A stretch of 64,000 nt of DNA from Candidatus Omnitrophota bacterium (lineage in GTDB: Bacteria; Omnitrophota; Omnitrophia; Omnitrophales; Aquincolibacteriaceae), in the NCBI GenBank assembly GCA_022705945.1, contig JAKJDL010000006.1, forward strand, positions 13,196 to 77,195. The letters run 5' to 3'. Below are positions 1,018-25,442 of this stretch, piece after piece. The translations under genes were made by a program, and so were the position numbers. The number at the start of each line of letters is the position of its first letter. Positions within the stretch are counted from its first letter, which is position 1. A model generated the notes under the pieces. It did not search any database and was not told where the DNA came from. It saw only the letters and a list, made by a program, of their open reading frames with translations.

Positions 1018-2583
1018 TCAAGCCGCCGGCGGCACGCCCTGTTTTAGATCAATCGGCGCTCCAAAGACGTCCGCGAACATATCCCCTTTCCGGCGCAAAC
1101 TTTCCCGCTCCAGAGAAATATCGCCGCTGTCTTTCGACACCCAGAGAGCGTAAGCGTCTTCCGACCGTTCCAAAGCAAAAGAGCGAATCTTCTGCTGGTG
1201 AGCGGTGTCCAACGCGTCGGCGACCCGCAAGATCGACGCGAGCTTCGAGACGATTGCCCGGTCCGATTTCGCAAGCGACATATAGGGAACATGCGTTTCG
1301 CGCGGCGGCACCCGGCGGTGGTAACGCACGACATTCGCGATGATGTTTTTGTCGGTCTGCCGCAAACCGAATATTTCCGAAGCGTCCACCAGATAAAAAG
1401 AATGCTTGTGATGCCCCGAGGAAGAAATGTAGGTGCCGATATCATGCAATATCCCGGAGACTTCGAGCAGTAGCCGCTCCCGGGGACCCATACCGTGATC
1501 TTTCGCAAGGGAGTCGAAAAGTTTTAGTGCCAAAGAAGCCACGCAAACCGCGTGCCCTTTGTCATACATATACTTCGTCCCGAGGTGATGGGCGGAATTG
1601 AGGACCTGCCTTGAAACATCCGTTCTTTTGTAACCCGATACCAGCTGCGCCATTTCGAGTAAGAGACCGTCCCGGATACTTAATTTCGGAATAATGATCT
1701 CTTCGGCTTCGGTTGTATTCAGGAAATTCAAATAAAAAAGAAGTGCGGGATAAAGGGATTCCGCGTGACCGTAATCAAGGGAGTACTGCGTTGCAATCTC
1801 CTCCGGCGTCATTTTCCCCGCCCGTCCCACAAAACCGACAAACTCCTTCCTTTCGAGAATCGTAAACCGGTCTGCGGTATCCGGGAGTAACTGCTGAGAT
1901 ACGAACCGCATATCACCCCCAAGGGCGATAAAAGTGTCGATCCGCTCCATGGGAACTTCACGCGCCGCGTTCTTTGTGATATCTCGTATGCTTTTTTTCA
2001 GGACGCGCTGGATGAAATCCTCATCCCCCCTGGCAGCCGCTCCCTGCTCCGGAAGCCTCACGGACCCGATCGGGAGGGTCCGTGTCACGCTCACCTGCCC
2101 CTGATCCATGACAATCATTTCCGTGCTCCCGGAGCCTACCTCGACGATCAGACAATTCTTTTTCTCGAGATCGATCCGTCCCTCCAGCGCATGTTCGACC
2201 GCGACCAGCTGAAGGCGATTCTCTTCGGGACCATCCAGGACCTCAACCTCGATCCCGGCACGCACATAAATCTGATCGATGAAATTATCCCGGTTTTGAG
2301 CCTCGCGAACTGCGCTTGTGGCGATCGCGTGGATTTTCTTGATTCCGTAGGCGTCGATCACGGACCTGAAATCCCGGAGAATATTGATGCCCTGGCGCAT
2401 CGCGATACTGCTTAATCGTCCCGTTTTAAAAACATCCTTGCCGAAACGAACGGGTTTTTGAAGCTGCTCCAGATATCGTATCTCGTTTTTGCCTCCGACC
2501 TCGGCGATCACCATACGGATCGCAATGGTCCCGATATCGATCACAGCGGCGATATGTTTTGTCGGAATTTCCGGATCGGACAT
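1018..2583 (-). CDS. ppx: exopolyphosphatase / guanosine-pentaphosphate phosphohydrolase (Ppx/GppA) with C-terminal HD domain
   Basis: 521-aa ORF. N-terminal Ppx/GppA actin-like ATPase fold (AAVIDIGTIAIRMVIAEV..., EVGSGSTEM). C-terminal HD motif (LHDIGTYISSSGHHKHS). Forms an operon with ppk. Confidence 0.85.
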   Translation of the reverse strand: MSDPEIPTKHIAAVIDIGTIAIRMVIAEVGGKNEIRYLEQLQKPVRFGKDVFKTGRLSSIAMRQGINILRDFRSVIDAYGIKKIHAIATSAVREAQNRDNFIDQIYVRAGIEVEVLDGPEENRLQLVAVEHALEGRIDLEKKNCLIVEVGSGSTEMIVMDQGQVSVTRTLPIGSVRLPEQGAAARGDEDFIQRVLKKSIRDITKNAAREVPMERIDTFIALGGDMRFVSQQLLPDTADRFTILERKEFVGFVGRAGKMTPEEIATQYSLDYGHAESLYPALLFYLNFLNTTEAEEIIIPKLSIRDGLLLEMAQLVSGYKRTDVSRQVLNSAHHLGTKYMYDKGHAVCVASLALKLFDSLAKDHGMGPRERLLLEVSGILHDIGTYISSSGHHKHSFYLVDASEIFGLRQTDKNIIANVVRYHRRVPPRETHVPYMSLAKSDRAIVSKLASILRVADALDTAHQQKIRSFALERSEDAYALWVSKDSGDISLERESLRRKGDMFADVFGAPIDLKQGVPPAA

Positions 2584-2596
2584 AGCACACCTTACT

Positions 2597-3589
2597 TTAC
2601 TTTTGGGTCATTTTCAGAATTTCACAGGCCATTTTGGAGGCACCTAAAATGACCGCGTTGTCTTTGAGTCTGGAAGGAACGACTTTAAGAGCCTTCATCA
2701 GCGGCTTGAGGGCGCAAGCCTCTATCCCGGAACGGACCTCGGGAAGAATGATCTTTCCCATTGCCTCCATCATGCCTCCGCCAAGAAGCACGAGTTCGGG
2801 ATTCAAAACATTCACCACATTTGCAAGCGCAACACCCAGCCACCGGGAACGGCTCCGAATCAAATCCTCCAGAGCGGTATCTCCCGCACGAATAGCGCGG
2901 GACAATGCCCCGCTACGAATTTTTTTGACGTTATAACCGATCTCCTCCAGAAGATGAGGACACTTTTGTCGCAATAAAAGGAACCCCGCCTCGGACGCGA
3001 TAGCATTTCTTCCGACGAGGGCCCCGACTTTCAAGCGTGTTGTTTCAAAATCCGACACGGAAGGAATCGACAGGAATGTCTGACCGATCTCGCCGGCCCC
3101 TCCGGAAACACCGCGATAAAGATGCCCGTTGATGATCAGCGCTCCGCCGATACCTGTCCCGAGAAAAACCCCCACAACTTCTCCATGCCCTCGCGCCGCA
3201 CCGAACTGCTGCTCCCCGAATAAAGCGGCATTGGCATCATTTTCGATGAAAACCGGAACCCGTAGCTTCGCTTTGAGTTTCTCAGCCAGCGGATAATTCT
3301 TGAAGAAGGATACATTGGAAGATACCTTGACGGTACCCGTATAGATATCGATGATCCCGGGGCAGCCGATGCCGATCGTCACGAGATCGCTCAAATCCGA
3401 GCCGGTCTCCTCAAGAACCTCCTCGATCCCGTCAATGAGCTTGTTGAAAAAGAACTTTTCCCCGCGGTTGCCGTCCATCTCAAGTTTGACGGTCTTCTTT
3501 AAACCGAACTTTCTGTCAAAAAGCCCCATTAAAATCTTTGTCCCGCCCAGATCAATTCCGAGAATGAACTTCTTTTTCTTCCTCCCCAT
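2597..3589 (-). CDS. ROK-family sugar kinase (glucokinase-like; candidate polyphosphate/ATP glucokinase)
   Basis: 330 aa. N-terminal ILGIDLGGTKI ATPase motif. ROK signature region ENDANAALFGE...GTGIGGALIINGHLYRGVSGGAGEIGQ. Lies 13 nt upstream of ppx in the same orientation. Confidence 0.8.
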   Translation of the reverse strand: MGRKKKKFILGIDLGGTKILMGLFDRKFGLKKTVKLEMDGNRGEKFFFNKLIDGIEEVLEETGSDLSDLVTIGIGCPGIIDIYTGTVKVSSNVSFFKNYPLAEKLKAKLRVPVFIENDANAALFGEQQFGAARGHGEVVGVFLGTGIGGALIINGHLYRGVSGGAGEIGQTFLSIPSVSDFETTRLKVGALVGRNAIASEAGFLLLRQKCPHLLEEIGYNVKKIRSGALSRAIRAGDTALEDLIRSRSRWLGVALANVVNVLNPELVLLGGGMMEAMGKIILPEVRSGIEACALKPLMKALKVVPSRLKDNAVILGASKMACEILKMTQK

Positions 3590-3622
3590 AGGTCCCCCAT
3601 TTTTCGATTAACCGTTCCCAAT

Positions 3623-3651
3623 ATAATAATTTATGGGGGCGCTTATGTAAA
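3623..3651 (-). promoter_or_regulatory. sigma70-like promoter TTTACA-17-TATTAT upstream of the ROK-ppx-ppk operon
   Basis: Minus-strand reading is TTTACATAAGCGCCCCCATAAATTATTAT. A GGGGGA Shine-Dalgarno follows just before the ROK start codon. Confidence 0.4.
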
Positions 3652-3915
3652 AGGTTAGTAAAATCTCCCGCGGTGATCCCGGAGCGGAGAGGGCCGTTGC
3701 CATTCATTGGAAATTACTGCTTCACTTCGAACGGGGTCCCTAACCGCCCTCTTAAAAATCCTTCGAACATTTCCGTGGACGAATCCACGGACCTTCCCTC
3801 GCGCAGAACATAGGGGATTTCGCCGGGTTCCCCGCCCAATGCGGTCGATGTCGTGTGGACTTCCCTGCAAATCAACGAACTTTTCACTCGAACTGGTATT
3901 TTCACGATTTAAACC

Positions 3916-4047
3916 CTAATGAGTAACCACAGGAATCTCGGCCGGGGAAACACCCCGGATCATTTTGTCCGAAACGGTGCGATGTACATCTTTCATTTTT
4001 GGGGCGAACCCGTCCGCACAGCTCTCACAGCAGGAACAATTCTCCAT
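3916..4047 (-). CDS. possible small Cys-rich peptide (43 aa) 21 nt downstream of the giant ORF
   Basis: My translation: MENCSCCESCADGFAPKMKDVHRTVSDKMIRGVSPAEIPVVTH. GAGGA about 13 nt upstream. Below the ORF-track size cut-off. Could be chance. Confidence 0.2.
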   Translation of the reverse strand: MENCSCCESCADGFAPKMKDVHRTVSDKMIRGVSPAEIPVVTH

Positions 4048-4068: not shown

Positions 4069-7000
4069 TTATGCGGCACTACCCGTCCTGAAACGGGCTT
4101 CATACTCCTGCGCAAGCTGCTGCAGAATAAGCCCGATCAGGGAAATCACATCCTGGGCATACCGGCCTTTTCCGTAGCGAAAAAGTTCCGGACTCCTCAA
4201 GAGTAACATGAGCGAATAAGCGAGCAGTTCCGGGTCGAGTCGAAGCATCTCGTTTGTAAAGTAATATCGGTGGCCGACATAATCCTGTTCGATTTTCTGG
4301 CTTTCGGCGCGGCTGCCCGTGATCAGGGCGATATCCTCGGATTTTCCTTGTTCCCGGAAACGGGTCAAAATGCCGTTGAGGCGCGGCGAAGCAGTGACCG
4401 CCGCTGCTCCGGAACGGAGTGAATTCCTGATAAAACTATTGATGCCGTCGGGCGCATAAACCAGAAAGGCGTTCTTCGCGCGAAGCGATTCTCTGGCCAT
4501 GCGGTCATAAAGCGCCTTGTGATCACGATCGAACAAAATAACCATGGGGAAAGGTGAAATCGCGATCTTGTCGAAATATCCCTCCGGAATGGTCCCGGCA
4601 TCCAAAAAAACAACGCGATCATCCGCAAGAATCCCGGTTTGTTCCTGACGGAGCAATGCCGCCAACCCAGCCCTCAACTCCTCGATTGAAACATCGTGAG
4701 CCCCGGACAGGGCGGCAAGCGCAGGAGCGACACGTTCCGCAACCCTGGCGGCATCCTGCAAAGAAGCCTCCAGTTCCGGCAAAAGCCCCGCATCGTGTGC
4801 CGCAAGAATTTTTTGAGCAACAAGGATGGCCGTCAGGATGCGGATTTGCCGCGACATCCGGGGTGCAGGATTGATTTTTTGATCATATTGAAGCGACGCC
4901 GCTGACGCGCGGGGCAAAGAAATGACAGCCGGCGATATATGAATGCCGGGCTCCGTGTGCGCAGTGCGGGTTTCCGATCTGCCTCCGCCTTCGGAAAAGG
5001 CAACCGCGGGGCCAAGTTTGGTAAGCAATTGAAAAGCGCGGGCGGTAAACCGACCCGGAGTCTGTTCCAATGCCGTCTCCAACTCCTCCTTGGCCATCCA
5101 AACAATTTCAGCCGCATTGTCCCCGGGGAGAAAATCATCCCGGGAAAACTCCCCATTGAGTGAAACCCCGTAAATTGCCGTATTTTTTCTGCGAACGGAC
5201 AGGCCCTGTTCGTTTTCATGCGTGATCTCCAGCTGAACCGGAGACCCGACCGGGCGGAAAACCATTCCTTCAGGGACCGGACGCCGTCCGCCCAAAAGCT
5301 CTTCATGAAACTCACGCAACACCGCGGCCTCCGGGCTCTGATCGGTTTCCTCCTGATGCCCGGCAAACGATAGGTCCAGGCGGCCGGGCTCGTTCCCGAT
5401 CTGATGATCCCGCCGCTGTAAAGCGATCATCCGGTCTTTGATCACAAGTCCCGCAATGTCTTCTGACCGCAATCCGCGCTCATATCCCGCATCCTTTTTT
5501 TCATAAACAATTTGACCGGCGGCATCCCTGAAAACGAGCCTTGCTTTTGATTCCGCGGACGTTTCACGCCGAAGTCCTTTGGCGAGCTCCGGGTTTACAA
5601 GTTCCGGAAAGCTGACAGCGATTTTGTCCAAGGTTTCCGCGAGTCTTTCGCGGGTCTTGCCGGAAACATAAAATGTCTCCGAAACGGGAGGTATGAATGC
5701 TTCGGACCTGAAACTCCGCCGGTCCCCATTGACGCCGTTCCACAGAAACCGGCTTACGGTCGTATAAAGTTTGTCATAGGGACTGATGACCGTATCGTCG
5801 GAAAGACGGACGGTTCGTTCAACCAGTAAATTGGGATTGGGAGGAGTGACACCGTTCCCCTCTTCTATTTGCCGGGACAACGCCGCCACAGGACGCACGA
5901 TGTCTTCAAGGAAGTTAATCCTGAAAGGACCGTATCGGCCCGTCAAATCAAGAATTCTATCCCGTGTGCTTCGCAGGAGGCTCTGGATCGTTTGGTGATC
6001 CTCCGGCGTCTCCGCCACAATCGCAACGGGGCCTGTCGGCACGGGAAACTGCGGCACGGCGGCGCTTGATATGTTCACGCGCCCGGAACCCAAATGCAGG
6101 GCCCCGGCAGCCATCATTTCTCTTAACTTTTGAGGCTGATAGACAATGTGTTCGATCTCCAAGCGGCTGGTTCCGTTACGCCCCAAAATAACCGGCAGCC
6201 TTTCACTTTCGACCTCATCGAGACTGGCATACCTGGTTTGAACTACAAAATGTCCGCCGTTTTTGGTAATCGCCGAAGAACTGCCGACAAGATCCCCTCC
6301 CGGAAACGCGATTTCGCCATATTGAACACCGATGGTTCCCAGTTCGCCGATCATCCTGGCGGCTTCCCCCAAATTGATCTTGAAAACCGCGACTGCCGTC
6401 CGGAAATCCACGCCCGTTTGAGGATACCAATAAATTTTGAACTTTTTTTGACTCGTCTTTGCGATATTCCGTGCCGCAAAAAACAATCCGGCATCTCCGG
6501 GAAACTCTCCGTCCGACTCCTCAACCGTGATAGCCCATCGCCTCAAAACCGCATCTTCCCGGATCAATTGCTCCAAGGCGGCCTTGTTCTCACCGTATCG
6601 GGGCGGGACAAGCACGATCACCTCCACATCAGGCATTAAGGCGGCATCGTGCAAGGCTCGCAGGACCTTTGACATTGCGATTTGTTCGCTACCCCGTTGT
6701 GACGTCTCACGAGGCGTCGGACTCTGCGGAACAGGTTTCGGCTTGGGTATTTCAGGTAGCGAACGTTCCAAACGGCGATTTTGTTTTTTTAAACGTTTCA
6801 GTTCACGCTCCCAGATTCGATAATAAGGTCCGACAAATCGTATAAGGACGGGGCCGATCTGGCACGCGATCGCGGCCAGCGGAAGCATGACCGTTCCGAA
6901 CCCCATCATCATCATTAAGGTTGCATTCAACCAATGCTCCCCCAGGTAGATCAGGATCACCATCGGAAGGAAGAGCGCGGAAATACCGGTCATCGCCAAA

Positions 7001-10000
7001 GCGCGCCTCCAGAACCGCGCATGTTTTTCGGCCAGACCGACTGCGGCATCCAGGGTTACCTGGCCATAAAACGCGGACTTGATCGCCGCTCCGGCATTTT
7101 CGAGAACCTTCTGCGCATCCGCGGGTGTCGTCAAACCCAGTTTCACCATTTTTTCGTTGAGGGAACGGAAACTCCGAAAAGTAATGATCCGGTGAATAGC
7201 GGCCACGGGGCTTATCAAATACCAGAGACGGGCAACAGGAAAAAGGAATCTTACCAACCGGTTATGGATGATCATTCGCCGGCTGCGGAACGAAAGCTTT
7301 CTGCGTTCGGGTCCGAGTCCCGGTATCAGTTTTTTTACATAATGGTCCAATACCGCCACCATAGCCCCAAGGTGATGCGCAAGGTTATAGCTTTCATTGA
7401 AAATATCCCCGTAATCAACGAGCCGTTGCTGAAAAATCTGGAATTCATGAAGTTCCATGGGAGTCTTCGCGGTTCGTGCCTTTTCCGTAATCCTGCGCGC
7501 GGTCAGGACGCAAAGCACCGTCAATATTCCGAAAATGATCGCCAGGTCCCTGCCGATCTGGCTGTTCCACATATCAATATCCCAAAATTTGATCCCTGAA
7601 AAAATAAGGTGCTTGTTGGATGCCAATTCCTGGGCCTTGATAAGGATTGTCGTTCGTCTTTCATGGTCCAGTTCCCTCTCTTCATCCAGCATCCCGGCCC
7701 ATTCATTGATGGGGCCGATCACATGTTCGAGCAATTCTTTATCCTGCGGGCGGCCTTGTTGCTCGAAGCGGATCACCAGACGATATTGGAGTTCGCTCGT
7801 AACGGCCATCAGATCACGCAATCTCGCTTTCGAATTTCTCCACCTGACCTTTTGTGTCACGACCCGCACGAACCGGCCTGCCAACCAAAGGATGATTCCT
7901 CCGCCAAACAATAAAAAAACCCTATCCGCCACCTTTTTTCCCATAACCGCGAGCCCTTTGGGACTCTTGAAGAAAAACTTCCAGCTGGAGAGAATCTGCC
8001 GGAAGCTCCCTTCATCGGCCAACACCGAATGACGGGAAAGTTCCTGATCGGGATGGCGCAATAACCGATAAAAGACGGCAGGCGGAAGATCACTTCCATA
8101 ATGCAGGGGCAACGCCGCAGGCCCCGCTGCCGGGGCAGGCGTTTTATCCTTTTTCGAATCGGGAATCCCCGTCCAGATTTCAACAGGCATATTGTCGCCC
8201 AACTGTCCGGCAGGATCTTCGACCTGAATTACAAGCGCATCCCTGTCTGAAAGCCAGAGACCGTTTTCATCCGCAAGCGGATGCACCTTGAAGACCGTTC
8301 CTTCCAGCACATCGCCAAGCGGCGTTCTGACCCGAACCCGTTCTCCTTTGCGAGCACTTCCTTTCGGGACATCGATGAGATGATCGCTGTCTGACAGGTC
8401 CGTGCTTCCGAGAAAAACAAGGGAGTTCAAAACGCGGATCCCCGTTGCCCTTCCGGGGATTACGGTCTGCCCTTCCACGGGAATAAGCCCTGCCACGCGG
8501 CCGGCAACCGGTGCTCTGATGACGATCTTCGGATTGACCCCTTCGAGACTGGCGATACGAAGACCCGCCTCTGCATCAAGTTTGCGAAGTTCTTCGGGGG
8601 AAACGGCCGCAAAATTCCGGTTCGCAGCACTCATTTCACCCACCAGCTTCCGAAGTCCCTTTGCTGCATCAAGCTGCTCCTGCCGGTAGCCGGAAGCATC
8701 AATGAACCCGACAGGTGTTCCGGCGGAAACAACCGCGCCTTCCGGGACAAGTGCATGAAAAACACCTCCGGGAACACCGGGCGCAACCGGAACCGTAACG
8801 GGGACAGACTCGCGAGGAGACACCATGACGTGGAAGGGTTTACCTGCGCCGAGGGGCGGATCGTTCATGCCCTGTTCATGTCGCTGACCAAGCTTTAGCG
8901 AATAGGCAATTTGAGAATCATGCCTCGCCCCGGAAGGTGAAACAAAATCGATCGTCAGAAGGAATTGTCCGCTCACGGGATCGAAATCGCCGAGATTATA
9001 ACGCAGCACCCGCACGGTTTCTCCATTGATCTGCAGTTCTGCATCATCGAAATCCGCATCTCCCGCGGGAAGCCGGAAAGAAATCTGCCCCGCATCAAGC
9101 TCAACACCATACACCGCAACATTGCCCTGATTCACCTGCCCTCTCGCAAGCTTTACAATCCTCAGGGGATGGGATGCTCTGAGCGTTCGAATCGCTTCCT
9201 GATAATTTCTTTCGCGAAGTTCACGCTCCAGGGATTCCTTCCCGAACTGCAAATTTGTGTATTCTGCGGCACTCACGGACCCGTCAGTCAGCTGGGCATC
9301 AATAAGCGCTATCTCGGCTATCAGTGTACGAATACGACTCGCATTTTCAGGATCTACGATCTTCAAAATCACGTCACCGCTTGAAACCACATCCCCTTCC
9401 CTGACCGCATATTCGGGAATTCCGGATAACGGCACCGAAAGATTCAAAAGAACGGGGTTAACCGCTGTTTCTCCGCTAAAAATGCTGCTGCCCGCTGATC
9501 CGGTCTCCGGCGCGGAAACAGCCGACGGAGATTCCTGCGAGGTCTCCGGAACCGTCGGAGACTCAGCCAGTGAAGCCCCGGCGGAGACAGTGCCAGCCAA
9601 CGGTAAAGCGTTTGTCGCATTATTAATGGCGGATGCAAGATCGGTGATGCCGCCTCCGGAAACGGTTGATGCTGAAATCGTTGTTTCCGCAACAGGGAGA
9701 GACGGATCGTCGGACGAGGCAGCTTTCAGCAAAAAGCTTTCGGACACTTCGGCATTACGGGGAATTTCTGCAGCTCCCGAAGCACCGCTCAATAAAATCT
9801 GCATAACCGGGGACAAACGGGCGGACTGATCCCGGGAGGCAGGAGCCGGTAATTGAGTTGAGTCCGCCGAACCGGGCCCAAGGGGCAAAACCCGGTGTTT
9901 TACCGCAGCGGACCGGGAATCCCCAACTACCGGCTCGAAAGACTGCTCCGCTGCTGTTCCTGCAGGCGCAGGTTCTCCTCGCAATGTTTCCTGAAAAACA

Positions 10001-13000
10001 TGTCTTGAAGCTCCTCCGTGGGAAACATCTGGTCGTGGGGCCCGTGATACGAGATGCCGTGAAGAAGCATGTGTTGTCTCCCGATCGGTTTTTTCACCTC
10101 CGGGATCTCCTGGCGCACCAGTTGCGAGCGATTCTTTCTCCTCATAAGAAGCCTCTCCTTCTTCTTTCAATTTTTGATTCAACGGATTATTTTCATTGAT
10201 AAAACCGGCAACGCCCCCGTCGCCTGCCGGCCGAACCACATATGATCCCGATGCGGACAACACTGATGCATGCCCCGAATCCAGAACTCCGGCCCGGTCC
10301 GCGAGACCCTGAATTTTGTCTCGAAATGCGGGATTAACGACAACGCGGCCCTTGGCGACAGATCGTTCCATTGCATCACGGTGGTTCCAGGCACTGTGAA
10401 AGGGATTATTCCAATTGAAAAAAACTGTTTGGAAGCTCGGCGGACTAACCGTATCCTCCGGATCCACCAAACGCGCTGTTAGGATTGCATTTAAAACGGC
10501 TTTACGATAACCCTCGATTGCAGCCGGATCCGATTTAGGGTTCTTCAGGTGTTTTTTAAACCCCGGCACCGCGCGGCCGAGCTCGTCATCTAATTGTTTG
10601 ATTGCCAAAGCGGATTCTCCGTTACGGTCCGCTTCACCTCCTGTTGAAATTTCATCGTTAATGCGGGAGTCCGTCGCCGCAGCCTTGACCGGACCCGCTC
10701 CGATCGCTGACGGTCCGGAAACTGCAGCTGCCTTTATCACCCCGACGGCTTCTTTAGACACAACTTCGCGGACAAATAACTGCTGTGCCTGCCGGAGCGT
10801 CTCTTCCGAAACAATCGTCACTCGAAGGATTTCAGCAAAACGCCCGAGATCTTTCTTGCCGCTCCCCTCCGAAATCGTATTGAGGATACGCGTCGTAAAA
10901 TCGTCATACATTTCATAGGCGCTCCCCAACTCTGTGCCGACATCTCCCGACCTAAGCTCTATCTCTTCAGGAGCGCCGGGCCCAGCCTCCTTTATACCGG
11001 CTTCGGGGGTCCCGGCAAATGCGCCCGTCACAAGCGAAACAAAAAGCACCATGATTCCGACAAAGGATTTCAGGCTGAAAAAAACAGATCTTCTCGCGCC
11101 TCCCATCTTCCGATCACCGCGAATTTCCGAACGCGGAGAATCAGCCATCGTTCCGGGCTTTTCACCGGCAACCCCTGAAACCGATAAGCGCGAGCCGGCA
11201 TCCGGACCCGGCTCAAATCCTCTTCCAAATGCCGGCCGATACATCCTTTCGATCACTCCCGGAACCGTCGGGCTGAAGGCATTATCTCCGGAAAAGTGTA
11301 TTCCGAACGCCGGAGGAAAACCTGCCGCCGTCCCCCAAAAGCCGGCCGTTCCACCGATCACGGCTAAAGCCTTTGCCGGAACTTTCACGGCCCGAAGCTC
11401 CGATCGGCCGCCTCCGACGTTCCGCCACGAAAATTCGCCCAGAACGCCCGCTATTGCTTCTAGCCTGAGGATTGCCTTGCTCATCTCGGCATGAGCTTCG
11501 ATGAGTCCTATCCGGCATTTCCACGCCTCCGAAACATATTCAGCCAGCTTGTCTTCCGTAACAAGCCGGCGCCCGGCCACCTGCGCTTGCCGGGCGCGAC
11601 GGATATCATCCTCAAGACGTTGAAGTTCCCCCGCAAGAGCTTTGATCCTGTCCTGGCTCTTTCCCATGCGATAAACAAGCCCGGAGATATCATCTTCAAC
11701 CGTACGCTGAACATCCATGAGAATGCTGTCCGTGATCTCTACTTTTTTAGAAGACACCCTCTCTTCAACATCCATACTTTTCCCAAAAGAGATTTGCCCC
11801 TTCAACCCACCGGCGGTCCGATCCTTTGTACGCCGATCCAGTCCCGAATCCCAAGCCGTGCCAAGGTCGCCTTTGGCAGAGGAGCTCATGCCCGAAGGCC
11901 TACCTAAACCGTCAATAAAGCTGAACCCTCCAAACCCGAGACTGAAACGACCCCGGGCATGCTCGAGTTCTCGAACGATCACAGCGGCCTCGCGTCCTTT
12001 ATAGGCTACAGCCAACGCCCGGTTGGGAGGAAGCTGTTTACCGATTTTGTTCGTCGCATCACGGCGCAAGCGTTCAATAATTCCGGGATCAGCTTTCCAG
12101 CTCTGCGGCAACGTATTTTCTTCTAAATCGATTACAAATTCCGTTTCAGCGGTCACTCCCGGGGCAAAAAGATTAGCCAGCAAAGCTTCCTTCGCTTTAA
12201 GTGAAGAACGGTATTCATCAGCCTTAAGCTTCCACCCGATCTGGATATTCCGGATTTTCATCCTTTCAAGCTCAGAAGTTTCGGCTCTCCCCTGCGCCGC
12301 TGCCATGGCCGGCTCTAAAGCCTGTATCGCTTTTTGAGCGGTCTCATAAAGCGCCCGGAGCTCCCTGATTTCGAGTGCGATCCCGGCATAATACGCATAG
12401 CGTTCCCCGATAACTTTCTGGTGATTGAGCCGGGCCATTTGCGCGATCTTTTCAGCAAGCGCCTTGGACAGCATGGGCTCTCCCCGCAAAATGCTTCTAA
12501 GCGAGGCCTCAAGATTAACTGCCAGCGTTGCGAGACTGCCTACCCCATATCCAGCGACACCTCCTTCCGCTGCATAAGGAATAACTGCTCCTAACCCTCC
12601 GCTAAAAACAGGTTTCCCGTCCACCAGGGCGACCTCCGTAAAAATCGACCAGCTGCCTTTTAGGCGATCCTTTTCGATTTCCTTGATCGCGATCTCGATC
12701 TCGGCTTTTTTGACCTTGGGATCGTTCTCGAGGATCTTCCGGAGCAGTAACCCGGAATCGACATGGGTTACCGGAAGCAAAACAACGGGCTTGTGCGGTA
12801 AGGAATACTCCTCGGCTGAACGAAGGGTCTTTTTAAGTTCTGTGTGCGAGACTGTGGCACAGCCCGAAACAAGTGCGCCTACGGCAAGCGCCGTCCTTGC
12901 TAAAGCTAAAAAACGCCTTCTGTTCATCTTTGATATCGGTTTCAATCCCCCGGACCGGGCCTCATAGCGACCGGCCGGGTCAGGAGTTCGTCGAACATCT

Positions 13001-14793
13001 CCTTCAGGGGTGCTCCGGTTCCCAGGCCGGACCACCTTTGAGGATCTTGTCCCCCGGGACCGAACTGCGTTGTATTTAGCCAGGACATCTGCCTCAGCGC
13101 TTCGAAATGCCAGGAAATCGTCATGTCCCATAAGTTTCTCTGCTATCGTGTCGGGCGTGATCGAACCCTGTGCCGCTGCCAGGGCGTCAGCCGACCGGTA
13201 GTCTCCCATAAGAAGTTTTTCGTATCGATCCGTATCGGGCTCGTCCCTGAACGAAGGCTGAATGCCGGCGAATGGAAGGCCTTCCGAGCGAAGCCAGTTC
13301 TCAAGACCCTCGGCGTGATATCCTCCGGTGACTACGGCGATGAAAAACGGCCGATCCGGTAAAACCCGCGCCTCCCTGAGCCGGTCTTTTATTTGTTTCG
13401 CAAAAACGTCATCGCGTTTTTGGGCTATTTGATAGAATTCCCTGACCGCTTTGGCGCCTTCGATCACTTCTTCCGCCGCAAGGTCGTATCCGGGCGCGAT
13501 CTTTGAGAACTGACGGACTTTTTTTTCAACATCCATCGCCAGAAACCGGTTGGATTCGGCGCGGTCCAGTTCCAGCCTGAAGGCGCGCTTGAGCGCATAA
13601 AAATCTTTGTATGCCGTTATCACCTTTCTCATTTTTCCGTTTGTAAAGAGCTTGTCGAAAACGGCTTCTTCCAGCCGTTCTGTTTCGGCAAGTATGCCTT
13701 CCGGTTCGATCTCCGAACGGAAGATCCGAAAAGCGAGATGGCGGACGAGATTCGGATATTCTTGCAATAAAACACCGTTCCGCCGGCAGGCATCCACAAG
13801 GACCTCCGCATACCGCCTGATATCGGGTGTTTCCCGGATCATGCTGACCGGATTTTCTGCAGCCGCGGATAAAAGTGCCACGGCCTGCTTCAATGCGGGG
13901 TCCCGGTCCCCGGACAAAGCGGCTAAAAGACGGCGGAACTCACTTTTCACGGCCTCCGGACGGATTGCTTCTTCAAGCATGCTCACATGCCGGAACCGGA
14001 CCAGATTCGGCCATGAAATTTGCGCGTGATAATCCGAGAGATCGAGATCCAGAAACTTTTCAGCGCTTCGGATCAGGAACGGCAGATAACGGCCCCAGGA
14101 CATTTCTTTTTGCTGCTGAAGCCTCCACTCCTTTAGGAACAGGAAGACATCCGCCCGGAGAACGTTTTTGAACGTGTTGAGCATCATCGCTTCGATCGTA
14201 TCGAAAAATTTTCCGGAGTTTCGACGCGCTTCCGCGACGCGCTTGAAAATTTGCACATGATTAAAATACATCCGGGGATCCTCGAGGCCCCCGGAAGGCA
14301 CGCCTTTTTCTGTGGCAATAAAATACGCCGCGCCATTCATCAGACCGGCCTTGCGCAGATCATTCTTGTAAGAGGCGTTCATTTTCGCATCCTTGAACAG
14401 ATCCAGCCGCTCGGGCATCAGCGTTCCCGCGGCGCCCTCAATCAGGACAAGATCGAGCTGTTTTCGCTCTCGAAGCCGTGCAAGGATACCGGCTATATTC
14501 CGCTGAGCCTCCCGGGAGGCGTGAGCGTCCTTAATGTGCAGAAAAAAAACCGACTGATTTCCGGATAGCGGACTGAAAAGACGGTCGAATTTACCAAGCG
14601 CGGCGGGAAGCCTCAGAAAACCCTCCGGGAGTCTCATTGAAACAGGGATCGGAGGGATCGAAAATTCTTGCGCAAAGATCTCGGCAGGACTTGTAAAAAA
14701 AATGCTCGAGCTAATAAATACCTGAAGCGTCAAAAACGCTATCCCTTTTAAGTGTTTTTTTGACTTGCGCCGATTCTGTTGCATAGCCGTCAC
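4069..14793 (-). CDS. giant 3,574-aa multi-module envelope protein (single uninterrupted ORF)
   Basis: Continuous ORF with a GTG/ATG start and an N-terminal signal peptide (KKHLKGIAFLTLQVFISSSIFFTSPAEIFA-QE). Modules by residue: ~75-520 TraB/GumN/TIKI-like (FFLHIKDAHAS ... FIAVVTGGYHAEGLENWLRSEG); 623-645 internal Tat/lipobox-like segment MNRRRFLALARTALAVGALVSGC; ~770-1120 TolC/OEP-like coiled-coil repeats; 1236-1258 TM anchor; ~1270-1780 S/A/T/P/G-rich low-complexity region; ~1785-2210 HlyD-like adaptor (GDVVSSGDVILKIVDPE ... IVIRAPVAGRVAGLIPVEGQTVIPG); ~2284-2665 five-TM domain; ~3112-3245 Nudix-like; ~3300-3574 unknown. All plus-strand ORFs across this span are short and R-rich (antisense-like). 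Codon usage resembles neighbouring genes. Confidence 0.65.
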   Translation of the reverse strand: MTAMQQNRRKSKKHLKGIAFLTLQVFISSSIFFTSPAEIFAQEFSIPPIPVSMRLPEGFLRLPAALGKFDRLFSPLSGNQSVFFLHIKDAHASREAQRNIAGILARLRERKQLDLVLIEGAAGTLMPERLDLFKDAKMNASYKNDLRKAGLMNGAAYFIATEKGVPSGGLEDPRMYFNHVQIFKRVAEARRNSGKFFDTIEAMMLNTFKNVLRADVFLFLKEWRLQQQKEMSWGRYLPFLIRSAEKFLDLDLSDYHAQISWPNLVRFRHVSMLEEAIRPEAVKSEFRRLLAALSGDRDPALKQAVALLSAAAENPVSMIRETPDIRRYAEVLVDACRRNGVLLQEYPNLVRHLAFRIFRSEIEPEGILAETERLEEAVFDKLFTNGKMRKVITAYKDFYALKRAFRLELDRAESNRFLAMDVEKKVRQFSKIAPGYDLAAEEVIEGAKAVREFYQIAQKRDDVFAKQIKDRLREARVLPDRPFFIAVVTGGYHAEGLENWLRSEGLPFAGIQPSFRDEPDTDRYEKLLMGDYRSADALAAAQGSITPDTIAEKLMGHDDFLAFRSAEADVLAKYNAVRSRGTRSSKVVRPGNRSTPEGDVRRTPDPAGRYEARSGGLKPISKMNRRRFLALARTALAVGALVSGCATVSHTELKKTLRSAEEYSLPHKPVVLLPVTHVDSGLLLRKILENDPKVKKAEIEIAIKEIEKDRLKGSWSIFTEVALVDGKPVFSGGLGAVIPYAAEGGVAGYGVGSLATLAVNLEASLRSILRGEPMLSKALAEKIAQMARLNHQKVIGERYAYYAGIALEIRELRALYETAQKAIQALEPAMAAAQGRAETSELERMKIRNIQIGWKLKADEYRSSLKAKEALLANLFAPGVTAETEFVIDLEENTLPQSWKADPGIIERLRRDATNKIGKQLPPNRALAVAYKGREAAVIVRELEHARGRFSLGFGGFSFIDGLGRPSGMSSSAKGDLGTAWDSGLDRRTKDRTAGGLKGQISFGKSMDVEERVSSKKVEITDSILMDVQRTVEDDISGLVYRMGKSQDRIKALAGELQRLEDDIRRARQAQVAGRRLVTEDKLAEYVSEAWKCRIGLIEAHAEMSKAILRLEAIAGVLGEFSWRNVGGGRSELRAVKVPAKALAVIGGTAGFWGTAAGFPPAFGIHFSGDNAFSPTVPGVIERMYRPAFGRGFEPGPDAGSRLSVSGVAGEKPGTMADSPRSEIRGDRKMGGARRSVFFSLKSFVGIMVLFVSLVTGAFAGTPEAGIKEAGPGAPEEIELRSGDVGTELGSAYEMYDDFTTRILNTISEGSGKKDLGRFAEILRVTIVSEETLRQAQQLFVREVVSKEAVGVIKAAAVSGPSAIGAGPVKAAATDSRINDEISTGGEADRNGESALAIKQLDDELGRAVPGFKKHLKNPKSDPAAIEGYRKAVLNAILTARLVDPEDTVSPPSFQTVFFNWNNPFHSAWNHRDAMERSVAKGRVVVNPAFRDKIQGLADRAGVLDSGHASVLSASGSYVVRPAGDGGVAGFINENNPLNQKLKEEGEASYEEKESLATGAPGDPGGEKTDRETTHASSRHLVSRAPRPDVSHGGASRHVFQETLRGEPAPAGTAAEQSFEPVVGDSRSAAVKHRVLPLGPGSADSTQLPAPASRDQSARLSPVMQILLSGASGAAEIPRNAEVSESFLLKAASSDDPSLPVAETTISASTVSGGGITDLASAINNATNALPLAGTVSAGASLAESPTVPETSQESPSAVSAPETGSAGSSIFSGETAVNPVLLNLSVPLSGIPEYAVREGDVVSSGDVILKIVDPENASRIRTLIAEIALIDAQLTDGSVSAAEYTNLQFGKESLERELRERNYQEAIRTLRASHPLRIVKLARGQVNQGNVAVYGVELDAGQISFRLPAGDADFDDAELQINGETVRVLRYNLGDFDPVSGQFLLTIDFVSPSGARHDSQIAYSLKLGQRHEQGMNDPPLGAGKPFHVMVSPRESVPVTVPVAPGVPGGVFHALVPEGAVVSAGTPVGFIDASGYRQEQLDAAKGLRKLVGEMSAANRNFAAVSPEELRKLDAEAGLRIASLEGVNPKIVIRAPVAGRVAGLIPVEGQTVIPGRATGIRVLNSLVFLGSTDLSDSDHLIDVPKGSARKGERVRVRTPLGDVLEGTVFKVHPLADENGLWLSDRDALVIQVEDPAGQLGDNMPVEIWTGIPDSKKDKTPAPAAGPAALPLHYGSDLPPAVFYRLLRHPDQELSRHSVLADEGSFRQILSSWKFFFKSPKGLAVMGKKVADRVFLLFGGGIILWLAGRFVRVVTQKVRWRNSKARLRDLMAVTSELQYRLVIRFEQQGRPQDKELLEHVIGPINEWAGMLDEERELDHERRTTILIKAQELASNKHLIFSGIKFWDIDMWNSQIGRDLAIIFGILTVLCVLTARRITEKARTAKTPMELHEFQIFQQRLVDYGDIFNESYNLAHHLGAMVAVLDHYVKKLIPGLGPERRKLSFRSRRMIIHNRLVRFLFPVARLWYLISPVAAIHRIITFRSFRSLNEKMVKLGLTTPADAQKVLENAGAAIKSAFYGQVTLDAAVGLAEKHARFWRRALAMTGISALFLPMVILIYLGEHWLNATLMMMMGFGTVMLPLAAIACQIGPVLIRFVGPYYRIWERELKRLKKQNRRLERSLPEIPKPKPVPQSPTPRETSQRGSEQIAMSKVLRALHDAALMPDVEVIVLVPPRYGENKAALEQLIREDAVLRRWAITVEESDGEFPGDAGLFFAARNIAKTSQKKFKIYWYPQTGVDFRTAVAVFKINLGEAARMIGELGTIGVQYGEIAFPGGDLVGSSSAITKNGGHFVVQTRYASLDEVESERLPVILGRNGTSRLEIEHIVYQPQKLREMMAAGALHLGSGRVNISSAAVPQFPVPTGPVAIVAETPEDHQTIQSLLRSTRDRILDLTGRYGPFRINFLEDIVRPVAALSRQIEEGNGVTPPNPNLLVERTVRLSDDTVISPYDKLYTTVSRFLWNGVNGDRRSFRSEAFIPPVSETFYVSGKTRERLAETLDKIAVSFPELVNPELAKGLRRETSAESKARLVFRDAAGQIVYEKKDAGYERGLRSEDIAGLVIKDRMIALQRRDHQIGNEPGRLDLSFAGHQEETDQSPEAAVLREFHEELLGGRRPVPEGMVFRPVGSPVQLEITHENEQGLSVRRKNTAIYGVSLNGEFSRDDFLPGDNAAEIVWMAKEELETALEQTPGRFTARAFQLLTKLGPAVAFSEGGGRSETRTAHTEPGIHISPAVISLPRASAASLQYDQKINPAPRMSRQIRILTAILVAQKILAAHDAGLLPELEASLQDAARVAERVAPALAALSGAHDVSIEELRAGLAALLRQEQTGILADDRVVFLDAGTIPEGYFDKIAISPFPMVILFDRDHKALYDRMARESLRAKNAFLVYAPDGINSFIRNSLRSGAAAVTASPRLNGILTRFREQGKSEDIALITGSRAESQKIEQDYVGHRYYFTNEMLRLDPELLAYSLMLLLRSPELFRYGKGRYAQDVISLIGLILQQLAQEYEARFRTGSAA
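5059..5460 (-). other. Nudix-like domain (degenerate Nudix box) within the giant ORF
   Basis: IAGLVIKDRMIALQRRD...GRLDLSFAGHQEETDQSPEAAVLREFHEELLG approximates Gx5Ex7REUxEExGU, but with D for the first E and one extra residue. Weak. Confidence 0.3.
6799..7944 (-). other. polytopic (about 5 TM) inner-membrane module within the giant ORF
   Basis: Hydrophobic segments VFLLFGGGIILWLAGRFVRVV, LAIIFGILTVLCVLTA, LVRFLFPVARLWYLISPVAAIHRII, MTGISALFLPMVILIYLG and LMMMMGFGTVMLPLAAIACQIGPVLIRFV. No confident family assignment. Confidence 0.4.
8164..9441 (-). other. HlyD/membrane-fusion-protein-like module within the giant ORF
   Basis: Lipoyl-like half-motifs flank a coiled coil: GDVVSSGDVILKIVDPE ... 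coiled coil ... IVIRAPVAGRVAGLIPVEGQTVIPG, then a beta-barrel-like segment. An N-terminal TM anchor sits at residues 1236-1258 (nt ~11020-11088). Confidence 0.55.
11434..12927 (-). other. NodT/TolC-like outer-membrane-factor module with lipobox-type signal, within the giant ORF
   Basis: MNRRRFLALARTALAVGALVSGC is followed by two OEP-like repeats (LSKALAEKIAQMARLNHQKV...YAYYAGIALEIRELRALYETAQKAIQALEPAMAAAQGRAETSELER ; ...DRIKALAGELQRLEDDIRRARQAQVAGRRLVTEDKLAEYVSEAWKCRIGLIEAHAEMSKAILRLEAIAG). Confidence 0.5.
13234..14571 (-). other. TraB/GumN/TIKI-like domain within the giant ORF
   Basis: N-terminal FFLHIKDAHAS and C-terminal FIAVVTGGYHAEGLENWLRSEGL resemble the two conserved His-containing motifs of PF01963. 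Confidence 0.45.
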
Positions 14794-15013: not shown

Positions 15014-15703
15014 ATGGCTGACGAAAAAATACTCATCATCGAAGACGAAAAGAACATCGTCGAGCTTGTAAAATTCAATCTCGAGCAAGAAGGTTTTCGC
15101 GTTTTCGCCGCATCCCGGGGCGACACCGGTTTGGAGATGGCGCTCAGGGAAAAACCCGCGCTCCTTATCCTTGACCTCATGCTTCCCGAAATAACAGGGA
15201 TTGAGATCTGCAAGATCCTGCGTCAAAATCCGAAGACAAAAGCCCTCCCCATCGTCATGCTTACGGCCAAAGGCACGGAAGCGGACAAGGTCCTTGGGCT
15301 TGAACTGGGCGCTGACGATTACATCACCAAACCCTTCAGCCCAAGAGAACTTGTCGCTCGCGTCAAATCCATATTGCGCCGCTCTCGGGAAAAACCGGAA
15401 GCCGAACTGATGAGAGCCGGGTCTCTGGAGCTCGATATCTCCAAACATGAACTTCTCTTAAACAATAAAAAGGTTGGGATTTCGGCAAAAGAATTTCAAC
15501 TGCTCCGCGCACTCATGGGGTCACACGGCCGCGTTTTAACACGGGAAGTGCTTCTCGAAAAAGTTTGGGGGTATGATAATTCCACCAACATCGCGACGCG
15601 AACCGTCGATATGCACATCGGACAACTTCGCAAAAAACTCGGCAAGGAATCGGGACGGATCGTAACGATTAAGGGCGTCGGCTACCGTTTCGACAATGAT
15701 TAG
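15014..15703 (+). CDS. OmpR/PhoB-family two-component response regulator (receiver + winged helix)
   Basis: 229 aa. KILIIEDEKNIVELV ... LILDLMLPEITGIEICKILR ... DDYITKPFSPRELVARV ... winged-helix C-terminus VGYRFDND. No cognate kinase adjacent. Confidence 0.9.
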   Translation: MADEKILIIEDEKNIVELVKFNLEQEGFRVFAASRGDTGLEMALREKPALLILDLMLPEITGIEICKILRQNPKTKALPIVMLTAKGTEADKVLGLELGADDYITKPFSPRELVARVKSILRRSREKPEAELMRAGSLELDISKHELLLNNKKVGISAKEFQLLRALMGSHGRVLTREVLLEKVWGYDNSTNIATRTVDMHIGQLRKKLGKESGRIVTIKGVGYRFDND

Positions 15704-17040: not shown

Positions 17041-17556
17041 TTAACCGGGAGACACCGCCTCACTGGCCCCCGTCCTGGCCTTTTTTTGCCACCTGCCCTG
17101 TTTCTTCGCCATCTTACCGTCATGCTTGCACTGCAGTTTCGTGAACTGTTCCGGGGTCAGAACTTCCTTCATCCTGAAAAGCCCGTCGATCCGCCTGGAA
17201 AAAAGCTGGCCCTTGATCTCGTTAATTTCGGCAACTTCCTGATCGACCGCCGCGCGGTCAGTTTCCGGTTTTGCGATTTCGTCGTGAAGTGTTTTCATTT
17301 TTGTCCTGAGCTGTTCCCGAAGCGCTTTGTCTTGCTCCTTATCAGCTTCGCGCCGGGCTTTCAGCTTGTCTTTCTGCTCCTGACTCAAACCAAGCTCTTT
17401 ATACATCCGTTCCGGACCGCCCCGCTTTTTAAAGCGGGCTTCCCGGAATCCTTCGGAGTTCTCTCCCCCATGGAAAGCATAAGCCGTAGGACCCGCCACG
17501 AGCAAACCGACTACCGCCCCGAGAACGGTCATTTTTACTGATAGTTTTGTTTTCAT
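17041..17556 (-). CDS. Spy/CpxP-family periplasmic stress chaperone (LTxxQ motifs)
   Basis: Signal peptide MKTKLSVKMTVLGAVVGLLVAGPTAYA. LTxxQ-type motifs LGLSQEQKDKLKA and LTPEQFTKL. Start chosen at the internal Met of track ORF 17041..17589. Confidence 0.7.
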   Translation of the reverse strand: MKTKLSVKMTVLGAVVGLLVAGPTAYAFHGGENSEGFREARFKKRGGPERMYKELGLSQEQKDKLKARREADKEQDKALREQLRTKMKTLHDEIAKPETDRAAVDQEVAEINEIKGQLFSRRIDGLFRMKEVLTPEQFTKLQCKHDGKMAKKQGRWQKKARTGASEAVSPG

Positions 17557-17615
17557 ATTCCGATCCTCCCTTTTGCTGACTTGGACCATCTCCGTCCTTC
17601 AAAAGTTCCGTTTTT

Positions 17616-18116
17616 TCATACAAAATCAAGGAACCCCAGATCCCCGCTGCCGCCGTCATCATCCGGGAACTCGGAATCCCCGCTCCCGAGCGCCGAGAAA
17701 AAAACCGCCTGCTCAGTCAAATAATCGGACATCGCCCGCTGCTCCGGCATGTCCCCCGGGACCCTCGCCATGACCACGGTAACAAGGATCAGGGCGACGG
17801 CAAATGCCATGCGGATTAAAGGCGCCGGTTTCAGCAAAAACCGAAGCCTTTCCGAGACTCCCGTGAGCCATCCCGCCTCAGGTTCCTCTTCAAAAATCGC
17901 GCTCCGGATCCTGTCCCAAACCTCAGGCCCCGGCCTGAGCTCTCCGCTCCCTTCGGGAGAAACAACCGCAAACTTCAGGATTTCCTCCTGGAATTTTTTA
18001 CATGCCCCGCAGTCTCTCAGGTGAGAGTCGATTTTTTCACACTCCCTCCTGTCGAGCTCGCCGTCCCGATAATCGGTCAAAAGTCGCTCACGAACCTTGT
18101 TGCATTTCATGTTCAC
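17616..18116 (-). CDS. anti-sigma factor with N-terminal zf-HC2 zinc finger and one TM helix
   Basis: CNKVRERLLTDYRDGELDRRECEKIDSHLRDCGAC is the zf-HC2 (H-x3-C-x2-C) motif. TM helix LIRMAFAVALILVTVVMA. Overlaps the sigma-factor gene by 4 nt. Confidence 0.75.
   Translation of the reverse strand: MNMKCNKVRERLLTDYRDGELDRRECEKIDSHLRDCGACKKFQEEILKFAVVSPEGSGELRPGPEVWDRIRSAIFEEEPEAGWLTGVSERLRFLLKPAPLIRMAFAVALILVTVVMARVPGDMPEQRAMSDYLTEQAVFFSALGSGDSEFPDDDGGSGDLGFLDFV

Positions 18117-25365: not shown

Positions 25366-25442
<77 letters not shown>

Follow-up and report, generated by a model that had tools for sequence, protein, structure and literature searches.

The 64,000-nucleotide stretch analysed here (the window), part of contig JAKJDL010000006.1 of a Candidatus Omnitrophota bacterium, carries on its minus strand an open reading frame (ORF) of 3,574 codons plus a stop codon at positions 4069..14793. 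Direct reading of the DNA bore out the statement of an initial annotation, made from the sequence alone, that this giant frame is uninterrupted. The start codon is GTG, with an ATG at codon 4. Because the G+C content of the window DNA is ~54%, a 10.7-kb open frame is not due to chance. An exact-sequence look-up found no record of the protein, and its family is rare. Homologue searches with the protein in three separate pieces brought up few relatives, and only 13 matches to the last 874 residues were found among 1.84 billion representative proteins, with no transporter family among them. The ORF is a real gene, and since the fused frame is conserved in independent genomes it is no artefact of this assembly. 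We propose, with a probability of roughly 0.5, that this conserved gene, which belongs to a small family centred on Omnitrophota, is of the polyprotein type and encodes in one frame the parts of an envelope-spanning assembly.

Hydropathy analysis of the protein placed hydrophobic segments at amino acids (aa) 15-33, 628-646 and 1237-1255 and in a cluster at aa 2288-2653. The first of these is the core of an N-terminal Sec-type signal peptide (aa 1-41, 14671..14793, minus strand as for all features of the protein), which has a basic n-region, ends in ...EIFA/QEF and is conserved in L008, L009 and P0014 (relatives are designated by L or P numbers). Module 1 (aa 42-575, 13069..14670), delimited in a 9-sequence alignment, is an exported domain without a family match. 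It is joined by an alignment-defined linker with the degenerate motif GRYEARSG (junction 1, aa 576-622, 12928..13068) to an internal lipoprotein-type signal peptide, MNRRRFLALARTALAVGALVSGC (aa 623-645, 12859..12927), whose lipobox Cys is residue 645. Both the N-terminal signal-like segment and the internal lipobox signal at residue 623 had been predicted by the initial annotation. Module 2 (aa 646-1129, 11407..12858) resembles an outer-membrane factor (OMF) of the TolC/OEP type by its Pfam OEP match. It ends in a conserved F-x-W, after which stands the junction motif RSELR (aa 1130-1134, 11392..11406). A spacer with a weakly hydrophobic start (aa 1135-1220, 11134..11391) leads to a second motif, RSEIR (aa 1221-1225, 11119..11133), 11 residues ahead of a signal-anchor or transmembrane (TM) helix, VFFSLKSFVGIMVLFVSLV (aa 1237-1255, 11029..11085; hydropathy and alignment), which is followed by AFA/GT.

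The anchor is followed by a periplasmic domain without Pfam match (module 3a, aa 1256-1540, 10174..11028; 86% identical to L008) and by an indel-prone low-complexity linker rich in Ser, Ala, Thr and Pro (aa 1541-1780, 9454..10173). The next module resembles a membrane-fusion protein (MFP) of the HlyD/RND adaptor type (aa 1781-2215, 8149..9453; HlyD_3 and TIGR01730), with two lipoyl-like half-motifs and a beta-barrel-like tail. An inner-membrane domain of no known family (aa 2284-2655, 6829..7944) contains five hydrophobic segments. It is followed by one or more cytoplasmic domains without Pfam match (aa 2701-3100, 5494..6693), a NUDIX-fold domain (aa 3101-3265, 4999..5493; Pfam NUDIX), the junction motif RSETR (aa 3272-3276, 4966..4980), which marks the same junction in all family members, and a C-terminal domain without a family match (aa 3310-3574, 4072..4866; alignment). 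Linkers rich in Arg, Gly and Pro or in Ser, Ala, Thr and Pro are present between the modules, as had been described. Within the variable, disordered linker ahead of the adaptor-like module lies a conserved island, LSPVMQILL (aa ~1657-1668, window ~9790-9830), which reads ISPVMAILL in L012; a gene caller placed the start of a 1,942-aa product of L006 at its Met.

The same architecture was found elsewhere by protein searches and by scanning a genome collection with a seed from the adaptor region, and a metagenome scan with the module-1 alignment led to two loci. Six other genomes or metagenome contigs, 20-78% identical to the window protein, encode the same architecture in one uninterrupted ORF of 3,526-4,000 codons. 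The closest is L008, an Omnitrophota metagenome-assembled genome (MAG) with a protein of 3,602 aa and 78% identity, followed by L012, a MAG labelled 'uncultured bacterium' (3,726 aa, 37-57%), and L014 (P0021), an ENA metagenome contig (3,526 aa, roughly 30% in the module 1 and module 2 alignments). At roughly 20-30% identity stand L016 (P0015, a Logan contig, 3,735 aa), L017 (P0017, a JGI metagenome contig, 4,000 aa) and L018 (P0018, an NCBI MAG, 3,711 aa). In the cut contigs L009, L020 and L011, the frame is open across junctions as far as the contig reaches. The initial annotation had left the choice between a genuine giant fusion, an operon that lost its stop codons and an assembly artefact. 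Persistence of the same fused frame down to ~20-30% identity in independent genomes speaks for the fusion and against both an artefact and a one-off loss of stop codons.

Interrupted copies of the gene were also found. The strain is also represented by a second assembly, that of 'Candidatus Omnitrophica bacterium ADurb.Bin277', in which a 6.6-kb contig (MWBP01000062.1, L005) equals window positions 13503-6944 exactly, save that 38 additional bases at ~9697 disrupt the frame. At this site, which lies in the Ser/Ala/Thr/Pro linker where codons are readily gained and lost, L006, L008 and L009 carry an in-frame 108-bp segment. The window lacks all of it and keeps the frame, and L005 retains only 14+24 bp of it. 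Both natural states of this linker site, 0 bp or 108 bp, preserve the frame. L004 equals L012 minus 104 nucleotides, and owing to this loss its first gene ends at the RSEIR junction motif ahead of the anchor, with ...GGRSEIRGS followed by a stop codon. L006 has TAA at a position where its near-twin L008 has GAA, a single-base difference; UGA-to-Gly recoding was rejected for this in-frame stop, since the codon is TAA and near-identical L008 has GAA. A frameshift lies near aa 1775-1796 in L010, and one ENA contig is split into products of 840 and at least 2,592 aa. The breaks stand at differing places, mostly in indel-prone linkers, and three interrupted copies have a near-identical uninterrupted partner (L005/window, L004/L012 and L006/L008). 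These copies are read as assembly errors or strain-level lesions rather than as gene borders.

The interrupted copies are what would favour an assembly or consensus artefact, or a decaying pseudogene, at a locus whose true form is an ordinary operon with stops. They are outweighed by seven DNA-verified uninterrupted ORFs from different samples, assemblers and lineages, by the scatter of the breaks, and by the fact that the window differs at the 9697 site by an in-frame deletion of the very segment of which L005 has a remnant. Further, compared with L008, the modules are better conserved (86-92% amino acid identity) than the linkers (73-83%), and the ratio of amino acid-changing to silent codon differences is 0.5-0.8 in modules 1, 2 and 3a, the MFP-like module and the C-terminal domain. 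An artefact or pseudogene is therefore hardly credible. Identity to L008 falls to 50% in the inner-membrane domain and 69% in the first cytoplasmic region (aa 2216-3100, window ~6700-8150 and 5494-6693), while the flanking modules are ~90% identical. This divergence points to a mosaic, which may have arisen by recombination or fast evolution. The C-terminal domain and parts of module 1 form the most conserved stretch, at 60-83% identity to L012.

Further variants were observed among the relatives. L009 (~3470-3993) and P0017 (aa ~1150-1340) have an insertion of ~170-250 aa between the two junction motifs that follow module 2, with several mutually similar hydrophobic segments (...AVNIPWAGLIAAYCVWMQDHLHRG...), an optional extra membrane module; L020 lacks the spacer at this place. 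The 4,000-aa ORF of P0017 (L017) also holds an ATPase domain of the histidine-kinase type (HATPase_c, aa 1683-1795, 64 bits), besides the neighbouring two-component genes. A 65%-identical copy of the second half of the gene occurs in L007 (JBAZMU010000072.1, GCA_041649595.1), labelled 'Candidatus Methylomirabilota bacterium'. It has ROK and Ppx neighbours as in Omnitrophota loci, and the contig may be mis-binned or mislabelled. Proteins P0012, P0016, P0019 and P0020 appear as 'stand-alone' C-terminal domains. The RSE motif stands ahead of the domain in P0012, P0016 (as RSENR) and P0020, P0016 and P0020 start with Leu, and P0012, whose contig was the one checked among them, lies on a contig of 999 bp. 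These proteins are probably gene fragments.

Pfam and profile matches were sub-threshold when the whole protein was scanned, yet they fell at the same places in orthologs. PDB sequence searches with the whole protein, or with a profile of the whole alignment, returned nothing significant. Modules were also scanned singly against the Pfam gathering scores, which are curated cut-offs. Module 2 (aa 647-1128 scanned alone) matched OEP at aa 995-1116 with 24.0 bits (cut-off 22). OEP was matched in five of seven diverse orthologs, with sub-threshold matches at the same place in L008, L012 and P0002. The best OMF match of the module 2 PDB profile was a weak one of the first OEP repeat to CmeC (E 0.07). 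AlphaFold2 gave module 2 a secondary structure of two repeats, each of a helix, a beta-hairpin and two long helices, in a model of aa 34-1233 with a mean predicted local distance difference test (pLDDT) score of 46.7. Foldseek searches of the module placed TolC at the top and CusC and OprM near the top, none of them significantly. The lipobox ahead of module 2, LVSGC with Cys645, lies within the ORF and is kept in L008, L009, L012, P0014, P0015 and P0017, though not in P0018.

The adaptor-like module, scanned alone, matched HlyD_3 at aa 1794-1827 with 28.0 bits (cut-off 22.2). Below the cut-off was a match to HlyD_D23 at aa 2019-2115 (module residues 239-335, 13.6 bits), and a weak MdtN-like match was found at aa 2039-2116 (E 0.03). 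TIGR01730 was matched in this region by the window protein (E 1.8e-4) and, in the same place, by L008 (E 1.4e-5). Residues 3101-3290, scanned alone, matched NUDIX at aa 3117-3251 with 24.0 bits (cut-off 21.1), and relatives scored 27.1 (L012), 22.6 (L008) and 29.9 (P0009). A regular-expression search found the canonical Nudix box, GX5EX7REUXEEXGU, in none of the giant proteins; the corresponding region of the window protein, GHQEETDQSPEAAVLREFHEELLGG, keeps REFHEE, has Asp for the first Glu, and has a spacing that is off by one. Collectively, the Pfam and TIGRFAM scores support the identities of the OEP, HlyD and NUDIX modules, in agreement with the OMF-like, HlyD-like and Nudix-like regions of the initial annotation.

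The other domains resisted assignment. Module 1 had been described as TraB/GumN/TIKI-like, an identity that did not hold: Pfam, where this superfamily is PF01963, had no match of any kind in aa 1-575 or in the same region of the orthologs, there was no PDB profile match, and hhalign of the 9-sequence profile against Escherichia coli YbaP gave a probability of 0.45%. Invariant residues of module 1 in the 9-sequence alignment are D-x-H, E-G, E, R and G-G-x-H. The D-x-H, E-G and G-G-x-H elements only loosely recall the paired GxxH motifs of the TraB family, and the invariant Asp/His, Glu, Arg and Gly-Gly-x-His set suggests a hydrolase. Module 1 reached pLDDT values of 60-85 in the AlphaFold2 model and is at most the part of it that is usable. 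A domain related to module 1 adjoins a calcineurin-like phosphoesterase in P0006.

When hydropathy was averaged over three orthologs, the inner-membrane segments fell at aa 2287-2310, 2417-2435, 2514-2532, 2598-2617 and 2626-2650, so the five-TM count of the initial annotation stands. No Pfam match was found in aa 2216-3100, and no family was found by Pfam for aa 1256-1540, the five-TM domain, aa 2701-3100 or the last domain, the last of these having also been searched by PDB profile. The AlphaFold2 model of aa 2375-3574 had a pLDDT of 32 and was unusable. Pfam scans of the modules detected no ABC, RND or MFS domain in the giant protein, and a motif search found no Walker A motif outside the OMF-like module, so that neither a transporter of the inner membrane nor an ATPase of a known kind was recognised. 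The initial view of the protein as a tripartite efflux or type-I-like secretion apparatus proper was thus not upheld. The C-terminal domain was considered as a Ser-Lys-dyad protease and rejected, because it matched no protease and the Ser varies among the nine aligned sequences, in which this domain has no invariant Ser, Cys or His at all. The C-termini of nearly all family members consist of a small residue followed by Ala-Ala (SAA, VAA, TAA or QAA, with the variants TMA, VSA and RSA). The window protein ends in ...GSAA (window 4072-4080), and such ends recall C-terminal degradation tags.

A short peptide marks the borders of the modules. The window protein has three copies of RSE[ILVFTA]R, at aa 1130, 1221 and 3272, and no further match to the pattern exists in any of the six frames across the 64 kb of the window. 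The seven DNA-verified proteins together contain 22 strict copies (RSE[ILVTFMA]R), against an expectation of ~0.04-0.06 per protein. The motif is present in every member of the giant family at equivalent module borders: it follows the F-x-W with which the OMF-like module closes, stands shortly before the hydrophobic anchor that comes next, and precedes the last domain. Several members have it at the end of module 1 as well (GRSEVRSG in L009, HRRSETRAL in L012). It forms the sole conserved island of linkers that otherwise vary, and small residues (Gly, Ser and Pro) stand before it. A hydrophobic segment follows within 45 residues in 11 of the 22 copies, compared with 2.6 expected (P ~1e-5). The copies draw on five codons for Arg, four TCN codons for Ser and both codons for Glu. 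Such varied synonymous codons indicate selection on the peptide rather than on RNA. A role of the motif at the RNA or DNA level, or as a ribosome-binding site, was accordingly rejected, given the use of all synonymous codons and a distance to the next possible start that ranges from 12 to ~40 nucleotides. No copy was found in the shorter module-1-containing proteins P0004-P0006. From its positions, RSE[ILVFTA]R looks like a candidate cutting site.

The arrangement of targeting signals bears on how the chain is used. The first three units each begin with a complete targeting signal of their own, of the Sec, lipoprotein and signal-anchor type, respectively. For a lipobox to be used by way of Sec, Lgt and Lsp, its hydrophobic core must cross the membrane with the N terminus in and the C terminus out. 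If the chain were left uncut behind an exported domain, the lipobox segment would be a stop-transfer sequence of the opposite orientation, and the OMF-like module would stay in the cytoplasm. Conservation of the lipobox to distant relatives thus implies that the chain is interrupted ahead of this signal, whether proteolytically or because translation starts separately there. The topological problem that the initial annotation saw in a single-chain fusion is real, and the conserved junction motif bears on it.

Were the protein instead one uncleaved, giant, multi-pass membrane protein, its internal 'signals' would be ordinary TM helices, the motif would be a structural or interaction element, and the OMF-like module would be cytoplasmic or its OEP resemblance only that of a coiled coil. 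The absence of a recognised protease would fit such a chain, as would the very long membrane-associated proteins for which Omnitrophota are known (bioRxiv 10.1101/2023.11.21.568195). However, the conserved lipobox Cys would be functionless in the reversed orientation, the MFP module would be periplasmic with its outer-membrane partner on the wrong side of the inner membrane, and the placement of the motif directly upstream of hydrophobic segments would go unexplained. The recurrence of OEP matches at one position in five of seven diverse orthologs also speaks against it. We regard an uncleaved chain as quite improbable.

A separate start for each protein is the basis of a second alternative, a stop-less operon in which the frame is continuous and the proteins arise mainly by internal initiation just upstream of the internal signals. 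RSE-x-R would then lie in a signal n-region or form a docking peptide, for example. The window protein does have a Met immediately ahead of each of its two internal signals (at aa 623 and 1232), the DNA at junction 3 reads GGTGATC 5 nucleotides upstream of the ATG, and each module starts with its own complete targeting signal. Many genes here are without a Shine-Dalgarno (SD)-like site, which makes SD-independent starts plausible. However, the Met codons are not conserved: L008 and L009 have none at junction 3, nor do L012 and P0015 at junction 1. Since, in addition, an SD-like site is found at only 12 of 32 window genes, the internal starts with SD-like runs of the initial annotation do not hold as a conserved feature. 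Were read-through irrelevant, 10.7 kb would not be expected to stay free of stops and frameshifts while the linkers gain and lose tens of codons. Moreover, the motif also precedes the cytoplasmic last domain, where targeting is not needed, and its conservation at the peptide level has no role in such an operon. Internal initiation as the main route is unlikely.

Since the start codons vary while RSE-x-R is kept, also before the cytoplasmic last domain, cleavage in the cytoplasm at the motifs is favoured. We give about even odds, judging from the sequences, to a polyprotein that would be cut there into separately targeted proteins. Cutting would be co-translational or early post-translational, at the R-S-E-hydrophobic-R sites that stand in linkers immediately ahead of each internal targeting signal, and would yield four products. 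Product 1 (aa ~42-610) would be a Sec-exported periplasmic domain, probably hydrolytic, and product 2 (Cys645 to ~1130) an OMF-type lipoprotein. Product 3 (aa ~1226-3271) would be an inner-membrane protein with both termini in the cytoplasm and six TM helices, comprising the anchor, the periplasmic domain and MFP module, then five more TM helices, and finally a cytoplasmic enzyme region ending in NUDIX. Product 4 (aa ~3277-3574) would be the C-terminal domain, soluble and highly conserved. If the chain is cut at the motifs, each module comes to lie in its canonical location, and the five TM segments bring the chain back into the cytoplasm ahead of NUDIX.

Products 2 and 3 would assemble in the manner of the outer-membrane factor and adaptor of a tripartite exporter. 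The part in the inner membrane and cytoplasm is no pump of the ABC, RND or MFS class. A classical efflux pump is for this reason less likely than a conduit linked to a cytoplasmic enzyme, along the lines of synthase-dependent secretion or of a device driven by the proton-motive force. Tentatively, the locus may then be described as an operon in one polypeptide, whose pieces, once cut at the pentapeptide by a cytoplasmic protease, would reassemble as a new envelope-spanning conduit tied to a NUDIX enzyme and not to an ABC, RND or MFS transporter.

Several observations weigh against this cleavage model. No protease was found: the invariant Asp/His/Glu/His set of module 1 is exported and matches no protease family, and the 9-sequence alignment of the C-terminal domain offers no invariant Ser, Cys or His that could serve as protease residues. 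The junction 1 motif is degenerate in the window protein itself (RYEAR). GTG, TTG and CTG codons in the linkers are possible starts, and ~40% of the genes here have an SD-like site. The OEP and HlyD matches are barely above threshold, the structure models (AlphaFold2 and fold searches, at shallow sequence depth) are too poor to confirm the folds, and more than half of the giant protein is without an assigned function.

The family was compared with several known systems. With the tripartite exporters AcrAB-TolC, MacAB-TolC and HlyBD-TolC it shares an OMF-like module (Pfam OEP) whose lipoprotein signal is of the kind seen in the NodT/OprM subgroup, an HlyD/RND adaptor-like module anchored in the membrane, and an inner-membrane domain, the giant modules being arranged in the order outer membrane, periplasm, inner membrane. 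In contrast to these exporters, whose parts are made from separate genes, the giant has all parts in one frame. Its inner-membrane part is a five-TM domain of no known family that is fused to the adaptor, with neither an ABC, RND or MFS domain nor a Walker A motif outside the OMF-like module, and it adds an exported N-terminal domain, a ~285-aa periplasmic domain, a ~400-aa cytoplasmic region, NUDIX and the conserved C-terminal domain. Synthase-dependent secretion, as in the alginate system Alg8/Alg44-AlgE, combines a periplasmic MFP-like domain, an inner-membrane and cytoplasmic enzyme and an outer-membrane conduit without a transport ATPase. The likeness to the giant is one of layout only, since Pfam found no glycosyltransferase, PilZ or TPR domain in it, and its cytoplasmic part has NUDIX instead.

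In polyproteins such as those of picornaviruses and flaviviruses, the gingipain precursors RgpA, Kgp and HagA, and the autolysin Atl, functional units are split by short sites in flexible linkers. The giant likewise appears, by its sequence, to be one product of several units with short conserved sites in flexible linkers. It differs in that no protease domain is recognised in it and cleavage is putative, and in that its units bear Sec, lipoprotein and anchor signals of their own, which would direct them to three different compartments; to our knowledge, units for three compartments have not been described for bacterial polyproteins. When the literature was searched for bacterial polyproteins that carry internal lipoprotein signals, no comparable case came up. 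The Archaeovorin/Dockerin giant genes of Omnitrophota encode proteins of >30,000 aa with repeats, carbohydrate-binding-like folds, and SecA-like, C39 or S8 peptidase domains (bioRxiv 10.1101/2023.11.21.568195). They share with the present family the phylum and very long, membrane-associated, multi-domain ORFs, and their authors, too, ask whether the products are cleaved. The present proteins differ in their size of 3,500-4,000 aa, in being non-repetitive, and in their defined junction motif; Pfam scans found no peptidase domain, and specifically no C39, S8 or SecA-like domain. TolC, HlyD or fusions of these are not mentioned in West-Roberts et al. (bioRxiv 10.1101/2023.11.21.568195) or in a 2026 survey. 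We regard as new the organisation of an OMF/MFP envelope system in a single frame, for which no precedent is known to us, together with its defined junction motif.

The surroundings of the gene were also examined and consist of ordinary chromosomal genes. A divergent OmpR-family response regulator (15014..15703, plus strand; Pfam Response_reg and Trans_reg_C) is a recurrent neighbour, adjoining the giant gene in four lineages (window, L004/L012, L014 and L017) and accompanied by a histidine kinase in the latter three. Beyond the regulator, upstream of the giant gene, lie genes for SIMPL, a Spy/LTXXQ-like protein, an extracytoplasmic function (ECF) sigma/anti-sigma pair, BipA, MurB and a GH1 enzyme. 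The ECF sigma factor, zf-HC2 anti-sigma factor and LTXXQ/Spy-like periplasmic protein (17041-18670, minus strand) form an envelope-stress-type cluster ~2.2 kb upstream of the giant gene. Downstream are a ROK kinase and Ppx/GppA. In closer relatives the giant gene stands beside ROK, Ppx, Ppk and His_Phos_1, with Pst-PhoU upstream. Such phosphate and polyphosphate genes adjoin it only in these relatives, not in L016-L018, and are a weak lead; together with NUDIX, the neighbourhood invites the speculation that the substrate is phosphate- or nucleotide-linked.

A 43-aa Cys-rich ORF just downstream (3916-4047, minus strand), for which the initial annotation had suggested a test of co-conservation, is a 5'-truncated copy of a conserved ORF of ~73 aa that is kept in L007 (5501-5722), L006, L008 and L011, and no evidence that it belongs with the giant protein was found. 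The longer ORF (MKTNEMLITELRRQRDLL...YAYCESCADEV...DKMIQG) had no significant Pfam match, and the intergenic DNA downstream of the 43-aa ORF is also conserved among close relatives. Elsewhere in the window, ~6 kb at 26000-32000 have a G+C content of 0.43-0.45, compared with 0.52-0.55 elsewhere, and begin just after a tRNA-Met gene (25366-25442). This stretch holds ORFs of 375, 796 and 303 aa and could be an island integrated at the tRNA.

Bacteria normally match the amounts of machine parts by means of operons and translational coupling. One conserved chain for a channel, an adaptor, an inner-membrane part and enzymes would be a different solution to the problem of matched amounts and, if cut at a fixed motif ahead of targeting signals, would resemble viral polyproteins. 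For the annotation of public MAGs, the broken versions of the gene are mostly linker indels or single changes and not real borders. If the cleavage model is true, it raises the questions of which protease acts, how cutting is timed relative to Sec export of a nascent chain of ~390 kDa, and what role a TolC/HlyD-type conduit plays without a known pump. RSE-x-R gives exact sites to mutate and peptide ends to seek in metaproteomes of anaerobic digesters and groundwater.

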